From a virus (taxonomy: Duplodnaviria > Heunggongvirae > Uroviricota > Caudoviricetes), in IMG/VR virus record IMGVR_UViG_2711768166_000003: 37,277 nucleotides of DNA. The stretch is one strand, 5' to 3'. The notes under the pieces are model-generated. The model worked only from the letters and a program-made list of their open reading frames with translations. It did no database searches and was not told the origin of the DNA. Made by a program: the position numbers and the translations under genes. Below are positions 1,764 through 17,248 of this stretch, in pieces. Positions within the stretch are counted from its first letter, which is position 1; every line of letters begins with the position of its first letter.

Positions 1764-3347
1764 TTGTTATTCAAAGGAACAAGACAATTGAACACTTTCA
1801 TATTCAGAAATAATGATGAAATCGGGAAGTTAGAGGCAGAATCAGACAATTACTTAGACTCATGTTTTTTAGAGACAAACATATTCAAAGGTATTATGAA
1901 CTTTGATCCATCTGAGAAAAATCCAGATTTTACGAAAAGAATCATCGTTGGAAGAACTGGTAGCGGAAAGTCAGCGATTTTAAGGAAGATTATCGACGAA
2001 GAAAGCATAAAGTTTTCTGATAAGATTGAAGCAGAAAACACTATTTTTGAACATGTTAAAAACAATGTCTTTATTTCATCCCTAAATGATAGTGGAATTG
2101 ACTTGAGAGTTTTTTATAAGTCTTTATGGTTACATGCGCTACTAATAAAAGTCATTCCAGCCTTACATCGGTCAACTTATCAAAGCTTTTTTAATAAAAT
2201 TCAAGACTTAATTGGTGGGAAAAAGAAGTCATATAATCCAGAGTTGGCAAATGAATATATCGAACAATTTAAGGACGTATTTTTTAATGACAAGGCTTTA
2301 GTGGAAATAAGCAACAAAATGCAGAGTGAATTATCTTCTAAGATAGGTATAAAAGGTATAGATCTTGGAGGTAAACTTGGTCGCGAAGACACTCAGAAAG
2401 TGCAGTCTGAAACATCCAGTTATGTAAGCAGAGAGTTAATCAGAAAACAAAAGGAATTAATAAAAATATTAAATGAAGAGTTTTCTGAAGTTGGACAGTT
2501 TAGGATAGTTATAAGCATTGATGATCTTGATCGTTCTTGGCTGAGCTCTAGCGATATAAGATATGATTTTATAAATGCACTATTAGAAGCATTTAGGGAG
2601 TTACTTGACGTCAAGTCAGTTAAAATATTAATTTCGATTAGAACTGATATACTAATGGGTATTTACAATAAAACATTAAGGCAAGATGAGAAGGACCAGT
2701 CTCTTATTTATCCTGTATCTTGGAATAAATCAGAGATCCGAGAAATAATTGACATGCGTATTAATCACTTAATTAAAAATAAATATCAAAGCTCTCGCAC
2801 TATTACAATGAAAGATATTTTCAATTTTGAAATTGATAACGTATATGCAGATGATTATATTTTAGACAGAACAATGTTAAGACCTAGAGATGCAATAAGT
2901 TTTGTAAATTATTGCTTAAAGGAGTGTGATGGGCACGTAAGTATTAATCAAGATATAGTTTTAATGGCAGAAGAGAAGTTTTTTTCTTCTAGGAAAAGAG
3001 CATTGGTGTCGGAATGGGGAACTATTTACAAAAATATTTCAGGTTACATAGACGCCTTATCTTTGTTGGAAAAACATGAATTTTCATTAGAATCAATTGG
3101 AGACGATAATAAAAATGACATTCTAACTTATATTCTTGATAGAGTTCCATCAGATATCGAAGATGATTTACACTCCAAAATAGTAATGAACTTTGATGAA
3201 TTAATAAAAGTATGGTTTATTGTTGGAATTATAGGGATAAAGAGGACTGAAACCTTAATAATATACTCTTCATATGATAAACCCGATCTTGATATCACTG
3301 ATATCAAACGCAACTTCGTCATTCATCCTTTGTTTAATAGAAGATGA
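1764..3347 (+). CDS. AT-rich cargo P-loop NTPase, KAP-like (Walker A GRTGSGKS, Walker B VISIDDLDR); candidate defence ATPase
   Basis: 527-aa ORF; Walker A near residue 63 and hhhhDDLDR Walker B near residue 250 (long A-to-B spacing as in KAP NTPases), further ISIRTD and LRPRDA motifs. Sits between att and int. Start uncertain: track start is TTG at 1764; first in-frame ATG is at 1896; a TATAAT hexamer lies at 1755-1760. Confidence 0.7.
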   Translation: MLFKGTRQLNTFIFRNNDEIGKLEAESDNYLDSCFLETNIFKGIMNFDPSEKNPDFTKRIIVGRTGSGKSAILRKIIDEESIKFSDKIEAENTIFEHVKNNVFISSLNDSGIDLRVFYKSLWLHALLIKVIPALHRSTYQSFFNKIQDLIGGKKKSYNPELANEYIEQFKDVFFNDKALVEISNKMQSELSSKIGIKGIDLGGKLGREDTQKVQSETSSYVSRELIRKQKELIKILNEEFSEVGQFRIVISIDDLDRSWLSSSDIRYDFINALLEAFRELLDVKSVKILISIRTDILMGIYNKTLRQDEKDQSLIYPVSWNKSEIREIIDMRINHLIKNKYQSSRTITMKDIFNFEIDNVYADDYILDRTMLRPRDAISFVNYCLKECDGHVSINQDIVLMAEEKFFSSRKRALVSEWGTIYKNISGYIDALSLLEKHEFSLESIGDDNKNDILTYILDRVPSDIEDDLHSKIVMNFDELIKVWFIVGIIGIKRTETLIIYSSYDKPDLDITDIKRNFVIHPLFNRR

Positions 3348-7948: not shown

Positions 7949-8641
7949 TTAATTATGTCTCTTAAGGGTTTGCGACTGACTGATTAAGACCTTTCCAAAG
8001 ACCATGAATCGGTGTTCGTTTTCGCTAGTAATTCCCCATTCACGGTAAATCTGGTTATCAGAAATCACCAGCAGTTTGTCAGGAATCATTTGAAGTCTTT
8101 TAACGTATATTTTGTCATCAAAACCAAAGACATATATACCATCACCATCAAACTGATTGATGCTGACATCAACGAAGATGAGATCTCCTGGCTCAATGGT
8201 TGGACACATACTGTCCCCACGAACGTTGATAACTTTGATGTGATTGGCTGGTCGTCCGCCGAACATTGATACAGCATTATCAGTTCTGTATTCGATGGCA
8301 TGAATCACATCAATGACATCACCGCCCTGGATAAGGCCATTTCCCGCACTGGCACTGATATCCAGCATTTCAATACGGAACACATCCTTCACCTGCGCAA
8401 CATCCTCATTATTACTGTTTTTATATACAGTATTACTTTTGAGGGCAGAGGTAAAGAGATCAGCAATATCAACACCTAAGCTCTTGGCAATATTACTCAG
8501 TGTTTGTTCGGTAAATTGTTTTTGCTTACCCGTTTCTAAGCGCGAGATGTTCGCCGCATCTACTCCTATTGCTTCAGCGAGATCGGCGATTTTCATGTTC
8601 TTCGCTTGGCGAAGTTGTCTGACTCGGTTTCCTATGTTCAT
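7949..8641 (-). CDS. CI-type prophage repressor (N-terminal HTH, C-terminal S24 LexA-like peptidase domain)
   Basis: 230 aa; N-terminal XRE-type HTH (KIADLAEAIGVDAANISRLETGK), C-terminal S24 motifs (GDSMCPTI ... KRL); divergent from cro. Confidence 0.9.
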   Translation of the reverse strand: MNIGNRVRQLRQAKNMKIADLAEAIGVDAANISRLETGKQKQFTEQTLSNIAKSLGVDIADLFTSALKSNTVYKNSNNEDVAQVKDVFRIEMLDISASAGNGLIQGGDVIDVIHAIEYRTDNAVSMFGGRPANHIKVINVRGDSMCPTIEPGDLIFVDVSINQFDGDGIYVFGFDDKIYVKRLQMIPDKLLVISDNQIYREWGITSENEHRFMVFGKVLISQSQTLKRHN

Positions 8642-8654
8642 GCGTTTATTACAT

Positions 8655-8725
8655 TTCTTTATTGCGTGATAAGCAAATCAACTTGCGCAAAATAATTGCG
8701 TGAAATAACATGCATAACGCGCAAT
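8655..8725. promoter_or_regulatory. OR-like operator/promoter region between cI and cro
   Basis: TTGCGTGATAAGCAA (8662-8676), which fits the TTGCG-N5-(A/T)GCAA pattern of the OL sites, plus further TTGCG / CGCAA half-sites (TTGCGCAA 8683-8690, TTGCGTG 8696-8702, CGCGCAA 8717-8723). Confidence 0.5.
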
Positions 8726-8738
8726 ATTTGGAGGGTAT

Positions 8739-8999
8739 ATGCAATCACCATTACGAAATGTGCGTAAGGCGCATGGTTTCACTTTGCAGCATGTTGCTGC
8801 GGGTGTTCAAGTCAATCCAGCGACGTTGAGTCGTATTGAGAGGCTGGAGCAGATTCCATCTATCGAGCTTGCAGAACGTTTAGCCAATTTTTTTAAGGGT
8901 GAAGTCAGCGAAATGCAGATTCTTTATCCGGCACGTTTTCAATCTAGCCAAAATCAGAATGGGTTTAAACCACAGGAACAGGAGGTGAACCGTGGGTAA
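8739..8999 (+). CDS. Cro-like HTH transcriptional regulator
   Basis: 86 aa, XRE-type HTH (HGFTLQHVAAGVQVNPATLSRIERLEQ); GGAGGG RBS; divergent from the repressor. Confidence 0.8.
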   Translation: MQSPLRNVRKAHGFTLQHVAAGVQVNPATLSRIERLEQIPSIELAERLANFFKGEVSEMQILYPARFQSSQNQNGFKPQEQEVNRG

Positions 9000-9549
9000 G
9001 CATCACTGGAAAATAGAAAAACAGCCTGAGTGGTACGTGAAAGCTGTCAGAAAAACTATCGCGGCGTTGCCGGGTGGTTACGCTGAAGCGGCTGACTGGC
9101 TCGATGTAACAGAAAACGCTTTATTCAACCGCCTTCGTGCAGATGGCGATCAGATTTTCCCGCTGGGATGGGCAATGGTTTTACAGCGTGCTGGTGGCAC
9201 TCACTTCATTGCTGATGCTGTGGCGCAGTCTGCAAATGGCGTCTTTGTGTCTCTTCCTGACGTCGAGGATGTGGACAACGCCGATATTAACCAGCGTCTG
9301 CTGGAAGTCATTGAACAGATCGGCAGTTATTCAAAACAGATTCGTTCAGCAATCGAAGACGGTGTAGTGGAACCGCATGAGAAGACAGCAATTAACGACG
9401 AGCTGTATCTCTCAATTTCGAAGCTGCAGGAGCATGCAGCACTTGTCTACAAAATTTTTTGCATTTCAGAAAGTAATGACGCCCGCGAGTGTGCAGCTCC
9501 GGGCGTCGTGGCGTCGATTGCTTCTGGTTGTGGAGAAACTAACGCATGA
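8992..9549 (+). CDS. Phage regulatory protein (CII-like / e14 YmfL-like)
   Basis: 185 aa; GTG start preceded by AGGAGG; position right after cro. Confidence 0.65.
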
Positions 9550-9884
9550 ACAGTTTAACAACACACTACCGTCGCTCGCAACTGATTGCGCTTCCGGTAC
9601 CGGGTGGAAAAGCGAAGGTGGAATATTGCTATGCAGTGAATGTACCAGGTGACAGGGAAATTGTAACCCACAGCTTTGCAGAGTGGGCTGTGGGTGATTT
9701 CAACCGGCAGAAGGAGACAGTCCTTTGCGACAAGTTAACCGCTGGTTCAAAGATCACTACGGAGTGCCCGTCAGAGTCATTCGTTGGGAGCCGGAAACAC
9801 AACGGGTTATCTACCTCCGCGAAGGTTATGAGCATGAATGCTTCAGTCCGCTCGAACAGTTTCGTCGTAAATTCAGGGAAATAG
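9546..9884 (+). CDS. Hypothetical phage protein (e14 YmfM-like)
   Basis: 112 aa; ATGA start/stop overlap with the upstream gene. Confidence 0.6.
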
Positions 9885-9893
9885 AGGTCGGTC

Positions 9894-10835
9894 ATGAGCA
9901 CTAAATTAACCGGCTATGTATGGGATGGTTGCGCTGCATCAGGCATGAAGTTATCCAGCGTGGCAATTATGGCCCGCCTGGCTGATTTCAGTAATGACGA
10001 AGGTGTGTGCTGGCCATCAATTAAAACCATTGCCCGTCAGATTGGCGCGGGGATGAGTACCGTCAGAACGGCTATCGCACGGCTGGAAGCAGAAGGCTGG
10101 TTAACGCGTAAGGCGCGTCGCCAGGGTAACCGCAATGCGTCGAATGTTTATCAGCTTAACGTTGCGAAGCTTCAGGCAGCGGCATTTTCTCAACTGTCAG
10201 ATTCTGACCCGTCAAAATCTGACGCATCAAAATCTGACCCGTCAAAATTTGATGCGTCGAAATCTGGCAAAAAAGCGGGTTTTCACCCGTCAGAATCTGG
10301 CGGGGATCCGTCAGTAAAATCAAAACATGATCCGTCAGATAAAAAAACTTCTCGTCCGGACGCTTCGCAACCGGACACGCAGACGGCTGAACAGGATTTT
10401 TTAACTCGCCATCCTGATGCGGTTGTATTCAGCCCTAAAAAGCGCCAGTGGGGGACGCAGGATGATTTGACCTGCGCACAGTGGCTCTGGAAAAAAATCA
10501 TCGCCCTGTACGAGCAGGCTGCCGAATGTGACGGCGAGGTGGTTCGTCCCAAAGAACCGAACTGGACAGCCTGGGCAAACGAAATTCGCCTGATGTGTGT
10601 GCAGGATGGTCGTACTCACAAACAAATCTGCGAGATGTACAGCCGCGTCAGCCGCGATCCGTTCTGGTGCCGTAACGTGCTCAGCCCGTCGAAGCTGCGG
10701 GAAAAATGGGATGAGCTTTCCCTGCGCTTATCGCCGTCCGTCAGCACGTACACAGAAAAACGCGAAGACCCGTACTTCAAAGCCAGTTACGACAATGTGG
10801 ACTACAGCCAGATCCCGGCAGGATTCAGGGGGTGA
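9894..10835 (+). CDS. Replication initiation protein (O-like, N-terminal winged-helix DNA-binding domain)
   Basis: 313 aa; N-terminal HTH (WPSIKTIARQIGAGMSTVRTAIARLEAEGWL); internal Ser/Asp/Lys repeat linker encoded by tandem DNA repeats. Confidence 0.8.
   Translation: MSTKLTGYVWDGCAASGMKLSSVAIMARLADFSNDEGVCWPSIKTIARQIGAGMSTVRTAIARLEAEGWLTRKARRQGNRNASNVYQLNVAKLQAAAFSQLSDSDPSKSDASKSDPSKFDASKSGKKAGFHPSESGGDPSVKSKHDPSDKKTSRPDASQPDTQTAEQDFLTRHPDAVVFSPKKRQWGTQDDLTCAQWLWKKIIALYEQAAECDGEVVRPKEPNWTAWANEIRLMCVQDGRTHKQICEMYSRVSRDPFWCRNVLSPSKLREKWDELSLRLSPSVSTYTEKREDPYFKASYDNVDYSQIPAGFRG
10195..10350. repeat. Candidate replication origin: iteron array plus A-rich tract inside the O-like gene
   Basis: Five tandem ~15-bp units (TGTCAGATTCTGAC, CCGTCAAAATCTGAC, GCATCAAAATCTGAC, CCGTCAAAATTTGAT, GCGTCGAAATCTGGC), then further CCGTCAG copies and an A-rich stretch (GATAAAAAAAC). 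Confidence 0.55.
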
Positions 10836-10837
10836 GC

Positions 10838-11326
10838 ATGAGTCTTTTGAATGACGTTCAGAAATTCATTGAAGCCCATCCGGGCTGTACTTCCGGAGAC
10901 ATTGCGGATGCTTTTGCAGGTTACTCACGGCAGCGCGTTCTGCAGTCAGCAAGCAAGTTACGTCAGAGTGGGCGTGTGGCTCACCGTTGTGAAGGAGATA
11001 CACGCAGACATTTCCCGCGCCTGACTGAGAGAGCGCAGGAGCCGGAACCACAACCAGTTCGTGAAACCAGACCTGTGCGCAATTTCTATGTCGGCACTAA
11101 CGATCCCCGGGTGATTTTATGCCTGACCCGCCAGGCTGAAGAACTGGAGTCAAGGGGCTTATACCGTCGTGCTGCAACCGTGTGGATGGCGGCATTCCGT
11201 GAAAGCCACTCCCAGCCAGAACGAAACAATTTTCTGGCACGTCGTGAGCGGTGCTTACGGAAAAGCAGCAAGCGCGCTGCATCGGGTGAAGAGTGGTATC
11301 TGTCAGGGAATTACGTGGGGGCTTAA
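10838..11326 (+). CDS. Hypothetical phage protein (Arg-rich, possible regulator)
   Basis: ATG at 10838 preceded by a GGGGGTGA RBS-like stretch; ends with TAATG overlap to the methylase gene. Confidence 0.55.
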   Translation: MSLLNDVQKFIEAHPGCTSGDIADAFAGYSRQRVLQSASKLRQSGRVAHRCEGDTRRHFPRLTERAQEPEPQPVRETRPVRNFYVGTNDPRVILCLTRQAEELESRGLYRRAATVWMAAFRESHSQPERNNFLARRERCLRKSSKRAASGEEWYLSGNYVGA

Positions 11327-11979
11327 TGAGTAATAAATATTGCCGGGCGCTGGTGGAACTGCGGAACAAACCAGCCCATGAACTGAAGGAAGTGGGCGAT
11401 CAGTGGCGCACGCCGGATAACATTTTCTGGGGAATTAACACCCTGTTTGGCCCGTTTGTCCTGGATCTGTTTACTGACGGTGATAACGCCAAATGTACCG
11501 CGTATTACACGGCGGAAGACAACGCGCTGGCGCATGACTGGTCAGAACGTCTTGCGGAGCTTAAAGGTGCTGCCTTTGGTAATCCCCCATACAGTCGCGC
11601 CAGTCAGCATGAGGGGCAATACATCACCGGCATGCGTTACATCATGAAACATGCCGGTGCCATGCGTGATAAAGGCGGGCGCTATGTTTTCCTGATCAAA
11701 GCTGCCACCAGCGAAGTGTGGTGGCCGGAAGATGCAGACCATATTGCTTTTATTCGCGGGCGTATTGGTTTTGAACTGCCTGCCTGGTTTATCCCGAAAG
11801 ATGAGAAGCAGGTGCCGACAGGCGCTTTCTTCGCTGGTGCTATTGCTGTTTTCGACAAGACCTGGAAGGGACCGGCAATCAGCTACATCGGGCGCGATGA
11901 ACTTGAGGCATGTGGTGAGGCCTTTCTGGCGCAGGTTCGCCAGCAGGCGGAAAAACTGGTCAGGGAGATGGCGGCATGA
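11326..11979 (+). CDS. Phage DNA N6-adenine methyltransferase (Dam-type orphan methylase)
   Basis: Catalytic motif IV FGNPPYS; upstream DQWRTPDNIF and LDLFTDG motifs typical of the phage Dam family; start at the MSNKY Met. Confidence 0.85.
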   Translation: MSNKYCRALVELRNKPAHELKEVGDQWRTPDNIFWGINTLFGPFVLDLFTDGDNAKCTAYYTAEDNALAHDWSERLAELKGAAFGNPPYSRASQHEGQYITGMRYIMKHAGAMRDKGGRYVFLIKAATSEVWWPEDADHIAFIRGRIGFELPAWFIPKDEKQVPTGAFFAGAIAVFDKTWKGPAISYIGRDELEACGEAFLAQVRQQAEKLVREMAA

Positions 11980-14519: not shown

Positions 14520-14876
14520 ATGCGTGATATGTATGAAGTAATGGATCGTTGGGGAGCTTGGGCTGCTTCAGACAATAGCGGAGTGGACTGGCAGCCGATA
14601 GCGGCTGGTTTCAAGGGACTTTTACCTCATGGCAAAAAGTCACGGATTCAGTGTGATGATGACGAAGGCATCATGATAGACAGTTGTGTGGCTCGGTTGA
14701 GAAGGTATAAACCAGAGGAATATGAGCTCATCATCGCCCACTTTGTTATCGGTATCTCATTACGCACTATTGCGAAGAAGAGAAAATGCTCTGATGGCAC
14801 AATTAGGAAGGAACTGCAAACTGCAATGGGGTTTGTTGATGGCTGTTTAGCAATGTTAGCTTATAGTATGGCATAA
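14520..14876 (+). CDS. Late-gene antiterminator Q (QuuD-type)
   Basis: MRDMYEVMDRWGAWAA ... IAAGFKGL ... SRIQCDDDEG ... CSDGTIRKELQTAMGFVDG parallels the recalled QuuD-family sequence; start at ATG 14520 after a GGAGAAAG RBS. Confidence 0.85.
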   Translation: MRDMYEVMDRWGAWAASDNSGVDWQPIAAGFKGLLPHGKKSRIQCDDDEGIMIDSCVARLRRYKPEEYELIIAHFVIGISLRTIAKKRKCSDGTIRKELQTAMGFVDGCLAMLAYSMA

Positions 14877-16070
14877 AAAATAAAATAGATTTACTGCCGA
14901 TTTTTCAAAAAAGACTGGGAACTGTTTATATCCAACGTAAATAAGGCCTCCATAAAACATGGCTGATGCGAGATATTTAACAGTTCTCATCCTTTTTTTA
15001 GCTTTATCAATCAAACCTGTAATGCTACTCTTAATACTATCTGCATTATCTTTGATTTCTTTATTTTCTTCAAACTTTAAATACTTATCGAAAGCGGACT
15101 CCACTCGAGAACGTAAGTTGTCGAATGTTTCATTGAATATCTCAATAGAAATGTAATTGACTTTTTTTATCATCCAAAGTCCTGCGATAATCAATATTGC
15201 TTCGGTTGTTTCATTAGCCTTCACTAAGCCACCAGCTGCTATTAATGCACCGGGAATAGTCAATGCTTTTGTCTGATTAGATGATATGAATTCGTTAATT
15301 TTACTCGTGAACTCAAGATTTTTCTCATCGAGTTCGTTAAGAATTTTATTTACAGAAAACCTCTTTGTGTAAATCTCATATAGTTCATCATATTTTTTCC
15401 TGACGAGTTCAGTAGAGTTAAGCAAGTCAAAGAAATTGAACGTACCATTTGCTTTAAATACTTCGTTTATGGCTGAGCGTATAACGAGCTTGCGCTCGCT
15501 TTTGTGTAAATCATTGATTTTTATTGTGTCGAGAAGCTCCTTTACAATTTCATATTTAAGAGACGAGTTCGATAAGCGATTAATCTCGCTATATTGTAAA
15601 AAATGCGTGAGTTCGACTGTATAACTTTTGTCTTCATTGGTGAAAAATAAGACAGAGCAGTCACTGTTATGATGATCAGAAATTAATGAAAGGATATCTT
15701 TCCACATAAAGAAAATATGGATTTTTTCGATGCTTTCATTCTTAGAAGTAGGGAGTATTAACGGCGTTCCGATGATATAATTTTTCGGAAGAGCGTTTTG
15801 GGTGTTTACTCTAGACCAAAAAGACTCAACATTCTCATAAATTATAGCATCATCCCAAGATGAAGCTTGGCGATCTAGCCAAATTTCATTATTTTCGATG
15901 CAGGTTGTTGCCTTTTTATAACCTATAGATTGTAACAGTCTAATTATTTCAGAACTATTTACAATAACAATGCTTTCTTCAAGACTTATGACAGTGTAGT
16001 AGCCCTCAACTCTGCTTGAGGCTCCGTTAATAATCTGCGCTAATCTTGATAAGTCATCAGCAATTGTCAT
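14856..16070 (-). CDS. AT-rich cargo gene B: protein with predicted C-terminal transmembrane helices (candidate effector)
   Basis: 404 aa; hydrophobic segments ALTIPGALIAAGGLV, AILIIAGLWMI and YLASAMFYGGLIYVGY in the last third; start ATG 2 nt after the stop of gene A; 3' end overlaps the Q gene convergently by 21 bp. Confidence 0.75.
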   Translation of the reverse strand: MTIADDLSRLAQIINGASSRVEGYYTVISLEESIVIVNSSEIIRLLQSIGYKKATTCIENNEIWLDRQASSWDDAIIYENVESFWSRVNTQNALPKNYIIGTPLILPTSKNESIEKIHIFFMWKDILSLISDHHNSDCSVLFFTNEDKSYTVELTHFLQYSEINRLSNSSLKYEIVKELLDTIKINDLHKSERKLVIRSAINEVFKANGTFNFFDLLNSTELVRKKYDELYEIYTKRFSVNKILNELDEKNLEFTSKINEFISSNQTKALTIPGALIAAGGLVKANETTEAILIIAGLWMIKKVNYISIEIFNETFDNLRSRVESAFDKYLKFEENKEIKDNADSIKSSITGLIDKAKKRMRTVKYLASAMFYGGLIYVGYKQFPVFFEKSAVNLFYFLCHTIS

Positions 16071-16072
16071 TA

Positions 16073-17248
16073 TTAGCTGTCTCTATATCTTTTGAGTTCA
16101 TCATAATTTGCCTGACTCAATTTTATCACAATTTCGCATTTGTTGTCAGTGAGAATTACAGGCTTATTTGACTTTTCGTCTCCAATAGCTCCACGCATTA
16201 TTTTCAACTTAAAATTATTGTCGTTATCTGCCACTTCAATTGTAAGCGCGCTTTCAGCTGCTTTAGGAGTTGGTTCAAATTGAGGGTCAATCTGGAAACC
16301 ATTAAGATTAACAAAATCGACAAACGTTCCCTTACATTTGTGTGAATCAGTCAGGCATGAGTCAATTATTTTTGAAATATCCTCTATCTTAACGGACTTA
16401 TTTCCGTGTTTATCTTTTGATTTTTTTTCCAGTAAGGATTTAACTTCATTGTCAATAGTATCACGCAGTACACGACCGAGTGAGTTTTTACTAGCAAAAA
16501 TATCTATAGCACTGAATAATTGCTGAATGCTTCTTTTATTGTCCGAATCATGTCGGCAACCTAATGAGTCTTTGAAAAAATCGCTTTTAGATTTACCTTG
16601 CAAGAAATGTACATATGAGTCACCCTTGTTTTCTGGATAACTGGCTTCGAATAAAGTTAAATCGAACATCGCAGCCTGCCGTAAGGCATCGGTATTAATT
16701 GGATTTAATCTTGTTGGGGTCAACTTATCCGAATCAAAGTCATAGGCGCTTTGTTTATCAACCATTACGATTAGAAGTTTCCCCAAATCCTCTGGTTCGG
16801 TAGACTTATAGTGGATGAAAACAACGCTCCCCCCCTGAAGTTGGGCAACTCTCGATTCGTTATTAGCATTATGTTTAAGCTTCTCTATTATAGCTCTAGA
16901 TAAATCAATGAATTCATTATTTTTATTAATGTATTTTTTTAGGATCGTAGGAATGGATGAAGGGTTGTGATCTGAGTCTAGGAAGTTATGAAATTTGTTT
17001 TTTCGGCTAAATTTTTTCTCAATTCTGGTTATGAATTCAGATGTGACTTCATTTTTTAGATCCCAAACTTCACCTAATCGATAATCAAATGCTCTTGAAT
17101 CATTTTTTTCAAGATTTGCTGTTACAGCACCAATAGGAAAGTACGATTGTTTGCCCAGCACTACAACATGAGGCGTGGCACCGCATTTATCGCAAGCTAC
17201 AGTTGGGTCGTCAAGAACATTGCCACATTCTAAACAAGTTATATCCAT
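16073..17248 (-). CDS. AT-rich cargo gene A: N-terminal zinc ribbon plus NA37/YejK-like nucleoid-associated domain
   Basis: 391 aa; N-terminal CLECG-x12-CDKCG; central region aligns by eye to YejK (GGSVVFIHY vs GGFVLFCHY; ...DLT...FL.GK...). Family assignment is from memory, not a search. Confidence 0.7.
   Translation of the reverse strand: MDITCLECGNVLDDPTVACDKCGATPHVVVLGKQSYFPIGAVTANLEKNDSRAFDYRLGEVWDLKNEVTSEFITRIEKKFSRKNKFHNFLDSDHNPSSIPTILKKYINKNNEFIDLSRAIIEKLKHNANNESRVAQLQGGSVVFIHYKSTEPEDLGKLLIVMVDKQSAYDFDSDKLTPTRLNPINTDALRQAAMFDLTLFEASYPENKGDSYVHFLQGKSKSDFFKDSLGCRHDSDNKRSIQQLFSAIDIFASKNSLGRVLRDTIDNEVKSLLEKKSKDKHGNKSVKIEDISKIIDSCLTDSHKCKGTFVDFVNLNGFQIDPQFEPTPKAAESALTIEVADNDNNFKLKIMRGAIGDEKSNKPVILTDNKCEIVIKLSQANYDELKRYRDS

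Follow-up and report, generated by a model that had tools for sequence, protein, structure and literature searches.

A constrained iteron array inside an O-like initiator gene as the probable replication origin of SfII/SfIV/CPS-53-type prophages

The 37,277-nucleotide stretch of IMG/VR virus record IMGVR_UViG_2711768166_000003 (Caudoviricetes), hereafter the window, on whose numbering all positions are given, carries a 313-residue O-like replication initiator gene with an array of short repeats inside its coding sequence. The gene belongs to an early-right operon of lambdoid type, where it is preceded by cI, cro, a cII-like gene and a DUF4222 gene and followed in order by a PerC-like gene (yfdN), dam, a gene resembling the LexA DNA-binding domain, rusA, a KilA-N gene and a DUF968 gene. 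It is the sole recognisable replication gene in the window: no helicase, helicase-loader or primase domain was detected among the other early-region genes. The features of the gene and of the DNA element within it are the following.

9894..10835, plus strand: O-like replication initiator gene, 313 amino acids (PHROG 391; BLASTP against lambda O)
9894..10184, plus strand: N-terminal winged-helix DNA-binding domain, residues 1-97 (Pfam HTH_36)
10194..10373, no strand: full cis-constrained element, in which synonymous change is suppressed (majority-codon frequency in 54 homologues)
10194..10268, no strand: five tandem 15-bp iteron units (Tandem Repeats Finder, motif scans, matrix of 210 units from 49 homologues)
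10287..10301, no strand: sixth iteron, CCGTCAGAATCTGGC (repeat listing and consensus scan)
10305..10338, no strand: two GATCCGTCAG boxes, each a half-iteron with a Dam site before it (repeat family listing, GATC positions)
10313..10352, no strand: A-rich segment, candidate unwinding region (nearest-neighbour dG)
10345..10375, no strand: mosaic joint between the module of N-terminal domain plus repeats and the C-terminal module (mEp460_4F5, phiNP, YeP2, KpnBHU6)
10410..10724, plus strand: lambda-O-homologous C-terminal domain, residues 173-277 (tblastn, BLASTP)

The initiator matches the profile phrog_391, 'replication initiation O-like', over its full length (E 2.9e-135, residues 1-313 on profile positions 1-298 of 298). 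Its N-terminal domain belongs to Pfam HTH_36 (PF13730, residues 23-70, E 7.4e-11), with a predicted recognition helix STVRTAIARLE at residues 55-65. Neither Phage_rep_O (PF04492), which lambda O itself matches at E 5.7e-36, nor a Rep_3-type family was found for it in Pfam; a PDB sequence search returned only marginal MarR-type winged-helix matches (E ~0.008), and NCBIfam gave nothing informative. An AlphaFold model (AF2) was run on the single sequence; its mean pLDDT of 42 ruled out a fold search and makes it a weak hint only. It places helices at residues 43-50 and 54-66 and assigns no secondary structure to residues 104-161. The C-terminal domain, on the other side of the linker, aligns with the P-interacting domain of lambda O by BLASTP (E 3e-26, residues 173-277 on lambda residues 178-270) and by tblastn with both lambda O (39%) and phi80 gene 15, at 35-39% identity and E 1e-19; across searches, its identity to lambda O ranged from 31 to 39%.

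Homologues were sampled as 80 related loci from GTDB species genomes, covering many Enterobacterales genera and with N-terminal domains 61-99% identical; removal of near-duplicates left 54 non-redundant genes for the conservation analysis. The repeats occupy codons 101-136 of 313, in the interdomain linker. The tandem units start at 10194, 10209, 10224, 10239 and 10254, and each is composed of a 3-nt variable spacer and a 12-nt core, TCA-rAw-TyT-GAy, which forms a near-palindrome GTCA-N5-TGAC. The sixth unit has the most symmetric core of the six, with the palindromic centre CAGAATCTG, and lies within the best-conserved stretch of the element (~10283-10345 in a column alignment of homologues). 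In Tandem Repeats Finder the array appears as 4.3 copies of period 15 (10203-10266), with a second reading of period 30 at 88% match. With at most two mismatches, the consensus CCGTCARAATYTGAC gives eight strand-matches, all in 10194-10303, for 0.39 expected, and none of 100 shuffles reached eight. In a scan of the 37-kb window the palindromic core TCARAWTCTGA clusters at the array only, and neither the repeat finder nor the motif scan revealed any other repeat array or core-motif cluster there.

Next to unit 6, conservation extends into the block of half-iteron boxes. Its two GATC sites, at 10305 and 10329, are 24 bp apart, and the pair is kept in ~42 of the 54 homologues; GATC density reaches 11.1 per kb within the element versus 2.7 per kb elsewhere in the homologue genes. 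Nucleotide conservation peaks over ~10283-10345, which takes in unit 6, both GATCCGTCAG boxes and the A-run. The A-rich segment at 10313-10352 (~72% A+T, strongly conserved) is the lowest-stability 40-mer of the gene, with a dG of -46.2 kcal/mol where the mean over the window is -55.3 (sd 5.1), although within the window it ranks only in the top 6%; as an unwinding element it is plausible but not striking.

A first-pass annotation of this DNA had described five tandem repeats of ~15 bp in the initiator coding sequence, encoding a repetitive Ser/Asp/Lys linker. The repeat finder and the excess of consensus matches agree with the former, and the in-frame units, which translate to the peptide SDSDPSKSDASKSDPSKFDASKSG, with the latter. 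The consensus it proposed captures the repeat apart from its leading CCG, where the variable spacer codon sits; the core that is conserved, TCA(A/G)A(A/T)TCTGA(C), is a near-palindrome. Among the dispersed CCGTCAG copies it mentioned, those at 10287, 10308 and 10332 are members of the element, while those at 10034, 10060 and 10738, retained in just 8, 2 and 1 of the 54 homologues, look like chance. Its extent of 10195-10350 also needs a small correction, as the constrained element reaches slightly further right, to ~10373.

The strongest signal in the gene is a constraint on DNA. Given the majority amino acid, the majority codon has a frequency of 0.82-0.97 over 10194-10373, compared with 0.46-0.60 in the N-terminal domain (9894-10193) and 0.59-0.65 downstream of 10373. 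When the gene is compared in pairs with its counterparts in Klebsiella, Citrobacter and Yersinia phages and in two relatives further off, identical residues share their codon in 81-100% of cases in the linker and in 40-50% in the N-terminal domain, and in all five pairs the linker has the lower amino-acid identity. Lysines of the linker repeats are encoded by AAA in 211 of 211 cases (62% in the background) and serines by TCA or TCT, where the background favours AGC. Even when residues are swapped the DNA pattern is kept, with K/E/N written as AAA/GAA/AAT and S/F as TCT/TTT. A position matrix built from 210 units of 49 genes reads nnn-TCA-rAw-TyT-GAy; the third codon positions 6, 9 and 12 within the units are 80-95% conserved, and the 3-nt spacer is as variable as free third positions (0.47-0.75 vs 0.54). 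Since the spacers diverged while the cores stayed fixed, recent exchange or homogenisation of the segment is excluded. The codon data thus indicate that selection acts on a repeated 12-nt DNA motif and not on the encoded protein.

The repeats also travel with the DNA-binding domain. The N-terminal domain and its units are found joined to two unrelated C-terminal domains, either lambda-O-like (the window, Klebsiella phage Kp4872-1 and AR_0058) or Phg_2220_C (phiNP, YeP2 and most genomic loci). The gene of mEp460_4F5 is near-identical to that of the window from CTTCTCGTCCGGACGC on (~10347) and unrelated upstream of that point, and phiNP, YeP2 and KpnBHU6 change their C-terminal domain at the same joint, 10345-10375. 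With its unrelated N-terminal domain, mEp460_4F5 carries five different repeats (CATCGGGTCAAAATGaCc) at a spacing of 23/23/23/24 bp, which cannot be protein repeats because a 23-bp spacing is out of frame. The distant HTH_36 initiators of F451, ST15-VIM1phi2.1 and 1720a-02 have their own repeats in the same place after the winged helix; in F451 and ST15-VIM1phi2.1 these are spaced 21-24 bp apart and are palindromic on a by-eye reading of the sequences. Such comparisons indicate that the repeats and the N-terminal domain form one module in inheritance and exchange. Unit copy number ranges from 3 to 8 across genera, which points to changes by slippage or unequal exchange. The near-identical gene of E. 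coli EC-16-35 (locus L011, 395-1381) carries three more GCATCAAAATCTGAC copies, which brings its tandem units from five to eight.

Within this family the repeat flanks vary together with a residue of the predicted recognition helix. Where the helix has arginine, ST(V/I)R (77 loci, 355 units), the units are flanked by G...C; in the five loci with isoleucine, STVI, all 19 units have T...A flanks. A symmetric change from G/C to T/A is what would be expected if a dimer reads both half-sites.

The arrangement has a close parallel in phage lambda, whose replication mechanism is reviewed in PMC7466680. The lambda ori lies in gene O, as do the origins of phi80, P22 (gene 18) and the Stx phages 933W and P27 in their counterparts, and the window shares with them the mid-gene location, in the linker-coding stretch between a DNA-binding N-terminal and a C-terminal domain, as well as direct repeats with internal dyad symmetry and, less clearly, an A-rich tract on the 3' side. 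As in lambda, the gene follows cro and cII in the rightward early operon. The four lambda iterons cover codons 117-145 of 299 in O, and the window units codons 101-136 of their gene, while the C-terminal domains of the two proteins are truly homologous. Repeat number varies among relatives of the window, as it does between lambda (4) and the Stx phages (6) (PMC7466680), and an inference of this kind has been made for phages L and P22 (PMC8022706). The differences are equally clear: the iteron sequences are unrelated, the lambda spacing of 20/24/23 bp contrasts with 15 bp in the window, where the roughly two-turn, same-face phasing is not seen, the lambda O N-terminus is Phage_rep_O and that of the window initiator HTH_36, and lambda has P downstream whereas the window has no P-like or other helicase-loader gene. 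The first-pass annotation had proposed a lambda-like ori inside the initiator gene with an adjacent A-rich tract, and every computational test that we ran (homology, position, DNA constraint, co-inheritance) supports the proposal. Followed into detail, the analogy holds for position and C-terminal domain and breaks down for the N-terminal Pfam family and the P-like partner gene; the A-rich tract has weak support, and it is weaker than that of lambda and much weaker than a classical unwinding element.

The DNA-level constraint, the co-inheritance with the DNA-binding domain, the lambda-like position and the C-terminal homology lead us to consider it likely, with good confidence, that 10194-10373 is the cis-acting replication origin of an SfII/SfIV/CPS-53-type prophage, located in the linker-coding part of its own initiator gene. 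Phages isolated as virions (SfII, SfIV, SKA5, Kati and PhiR49_1) carry the module at 98-99% identity and have no other initiator. Mechanistically, dimers of the N-terminal winged helix would bind the six palindromic units (core TCAGAATCTGA), with the arginine at the start of the recognition helix reading the outer G/C pair of each half-site. The resulting nucleoprotein complex would destabilise the neighbouring conserved A-rich segment, and the lambda-O-like C-terminal domain would then recruit the host replicative helicase, presumably as host DnaB-DnaC. This last presumption is made because the window has no loader gene and a loader gene adjoins the initiator in only ~9 of 77 related loci. 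Binding, unwinding, helicase recruitment and origin activity are all steps that we infer from sequence.

A sister module in the E. coli AR_0058 prophage (locus L013, 739-2454) does have a loader. Its N-terminal domain is 67% identical, its units read TTGACCCGTCAAnnn, and after its lambda-O-like C-terminal domain, shared with the window, comes a DnaC-like loader gene (NCBIfam PRK12377, E 1.4e-152). One C-terminal domain is thus found in both settings, with a loader and without.

Several points weigh against an origin at this site. With no phage helicase loader, the step after binding is a guess. The 15-bp period corresponds to ~1.4 helical turns and puts neighbouring sites on opposite faces of the helix; as this phasing is unlike the 20-24 bp of lambda, a lambda-like wrapped O-some cannot simply be assumed, and the shape of the complex may differ. 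The instability of the A-rich segment is modest, and consensus scans found neither a DnaA box nor an IHF site near the element. The confidence of the AF2 model is low. The covariation between Arg/Ile and the repeat flanks may reflect a single evolutionary event, since the Ile loci may be one clade, and it is therefore supportive and not decisive. Finally, no paper or database record describing this origin was found: the annotated records of SfII, phiNP, YeP2 and mEp460_4F5 mark no origin here, and among the product names listed for the other matches none mentions one.

A more specific proposal is that the origin works unlike that of lambda in three ways at once. Dimers phased at 15 bp on alternating faces would build a straight filament instead of a wrapped O-some; through the GATC pair in the best-conserved block, firing could be coupled to Dam methylation or SeqA; and host DnaB-DnaC would be brought in by the lambda-O-type C-terminal domain itself, without a phage P. 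All three together we regard as rather unlikely. Relevant to the second, many of the related loci have a DNA methyltransferase gene no more than two genes away from the initiator, and a link between methylation and origin firing is possible.

Among other explanations of the array, the one that survives best is that the repeats are binding sites through which the initiator regulates its own expression, controls copy number or handcuffs, while strand opening and replisome assembly take place elsewhere. Evidence for binding sites does not by itself separate an origin from an operator; moreover, the neighbouring A-rich segment is only modestly unstable, and 40-mers at 8645 and 9441 in the same operon are similarly so. 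We nevertheless hold this explanation to be improbable, as the window has no second repeat array or core-motif cluster, the DNA-level constraint runs on through the A-rich block to ~10373, and the array occupies the position of the lambda ori relative to a homologous C-terminal domain. Nor was a promoter-like site found beside the repeats, the promoter scan giving no sigma-70-like promoter in 8500-11500. A terminator-like hairpin on the minus strand (10289-10276) was dismissed, because it falls between units 5 and 6, where conservation is poor.

The constraint could also come from a structured RNA, or from a cruciform or hairpin in the DNA, rather than from a protein-binding array. Imperfect long inverted repeats do extend over 10196-10304, and both strands fold better than shuffled sequences (z = -5.3 and -4.0), but any tandem array of palindromes folds in this way automatically. 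A copy number between 3 and 8 would alter any specific fold, the non-palindromic block 10305-10373 is constrained as well, and the half-sites hold one consensus instead of showing compensatory pair changes. In the Rfam scan the only match, to mir-5880, is spurious, scoring 30.7 bits with a gathering score of 97. This explanation is very improbable.

Still less credit can be given to the idea that the repeats are just a slippage-prone, low-complexity Ser/Asp/Lys linker of the protein with no function as DNA. Such a linker would agree with a period that is a multiple of three and units in frame, with a copy number that varies (five here, eight in EC-16-35 and 3-8 across genera), and with a low-confidence AF2 model that has no secondary structure over residues 104-161. 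It does not agree with synonymous sites far more conserved than those of the folded domain where amino acids are less so, with a codon choice that is fixed and persists through amino-acid replacements, or with conservation that tracks a 12+3 DNA pattern and not codon position; in addition, the equivalent repeats of mEp460 and ST15-VIM1phi2.1 have out-of-frame periods of 22-24 bp. The codon data largely refute it.

Equally hard to credit is a segment that is either a recombination joint kept similar by frequent exchange or constrained by an overlapping gene: there is a module boundary at ~10347, a CCTTCTyGTCCGG...CAACC flank is common to genes with different C-terminal domains, and other-frame open reading frames (ORFs) exist at 10135-10317 (plus) and 10156-10323 (minus), but the spacers vary like third positions of the N-terminal domain while the cores are fixed, as in an old segment under selection, and at most 56% of homologues have any given alternative frame open over 90% or more of the region (minimum 23-31%). 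Recent recombination was accordingly rejected as the cause of low synonymous divergence, the spacer positions being saturated, and so was the overlapping gene, no alternative frame being conserved as open across homologues.

Returning to the origin as the preferred explanation, other systems close to it include the HTH_36-type phage initiators (PHROG 391 and relatives), and the window protein matches PHROG 391 over its full length. They are often annotated 'primosomal protein I', 'replication protein O' or 'helix-turn-helix domain-containing protein'. The three distant members compared also carry linker repeats, with sequences and periods that differ between subfamilies, and in the searchable literature we found no experimentally defined origin for any initiator of this type. 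Theta plasmids such as pPS10, pSC101, RK2 and R6K likewise combine a winged-helix initiator with repeated sites beside an A+T-rich region, and by likeness to plasmid iterons extra sites could serve copy control. Their iterons, on the other hand, are intergenic with a spacing of ~22 bp, are recognised as a rule by Rep monomers and have DnaA boxes in the vicinity, whereas the window array lies inside a coding sequence, has a 15-bp period and palindromic units, and lacks a DnaA box. In that its gene stands alone, with no accompanying helicase or loader gene, the window initiator resembles the 'initiator-solo' phage replication modules, a category reportedly due to Weigel and Seitz.

The module is widespread: at least 80% of the query segment is present in 1944 of 5426 complete E. 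coli genomes (~36%), and it occurs in the Shigella serotype-converting phages SfII and SfIV. The element is a well-supported further example of a textbook class, iterons inside the initiator gene, and not a new kind; as the principle is already established, the gain is incremental. A known origin with its recognition code would help to annotate prophages better, to predict replication incompatibility or cross-activation between co-resident prophages, and to assemble small vector cassettes of initiator plus ori. The module is also a natural system for how a lambda-O-type C-terminal domain works without P.

In E. coli K-12, the CPS-53/KpLE1 prophage (K-12-type strain 6A; locus L012, 2502-3209) has a 5'-truncated initiator pseudogene beside yfdN. 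The DNA-binding domain has been lost, while all repeat units and GATC boxes are kept, leaving an orphan origin-like element. A few circular E. coli 'plasmid' records of 37-44 kb carry the module without a replicon type, for example NZ_CP081716.1 (37.7 kb) and CP085522.1 (41.5 kb); they are likely to be phage genomes excised and assembled as circles, a merely suggestive point that is not counted as evidence here. In assemblies labelled Vagococcus, Chryseobacterium, Martelella and Pseudomonas lundensis, this initiator gene, of Enterobacterales prophage type, is present at 66-88% identity; contamination or mislabelling of these assemblies is probable.

As for the neighbouring genes, the yfdN-like gene (10832-11326) overlaps the initiator stop codon, and its product joins a MarR-like winged helix at the N-terminus to a PerC domain at the C-terminus. 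This gene directly follows the initiator in 22 of 77 related loci, and may have a role in replication. Dam is the next gene in 20 of the 77, and in the window (11293-11979) it comes after the PerC-like gene. Several other loci have apparent methyltransferases of other kinds beside the initiator, judged by motifs without a domain search. Just upstream, in 9546-9904, two ORFs in different frames overlap by ~160 nt, with family support for both. ORF 9546-9884 (112 residues) matches phrog_1170 (E 7.6e-70), and its first 63 residues also match a separate 63-residue family, phrog_20047; ORF 9725-9904 (59 residues) matches Pfam DUF4222 (E 8.6e-19). In the annotation of SfII, GenBank has the former and RefSeq the latter; one of the two may be the real gene, or a frameshift may join them. 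Further away, a gene for a KAP-family P-loop NTPase lies at 1764-3347, beyond the integrase at the left end of the window, and the late-regulatory region (14856-17248) holds two cargo-like genes on the minus strand, for a 404-residue protein with no Pfam domain and a homologue of the 37-kDa nucleoid-associated protein (NA37). The KAP NTPase gene and these two are possible defence or moron genes.

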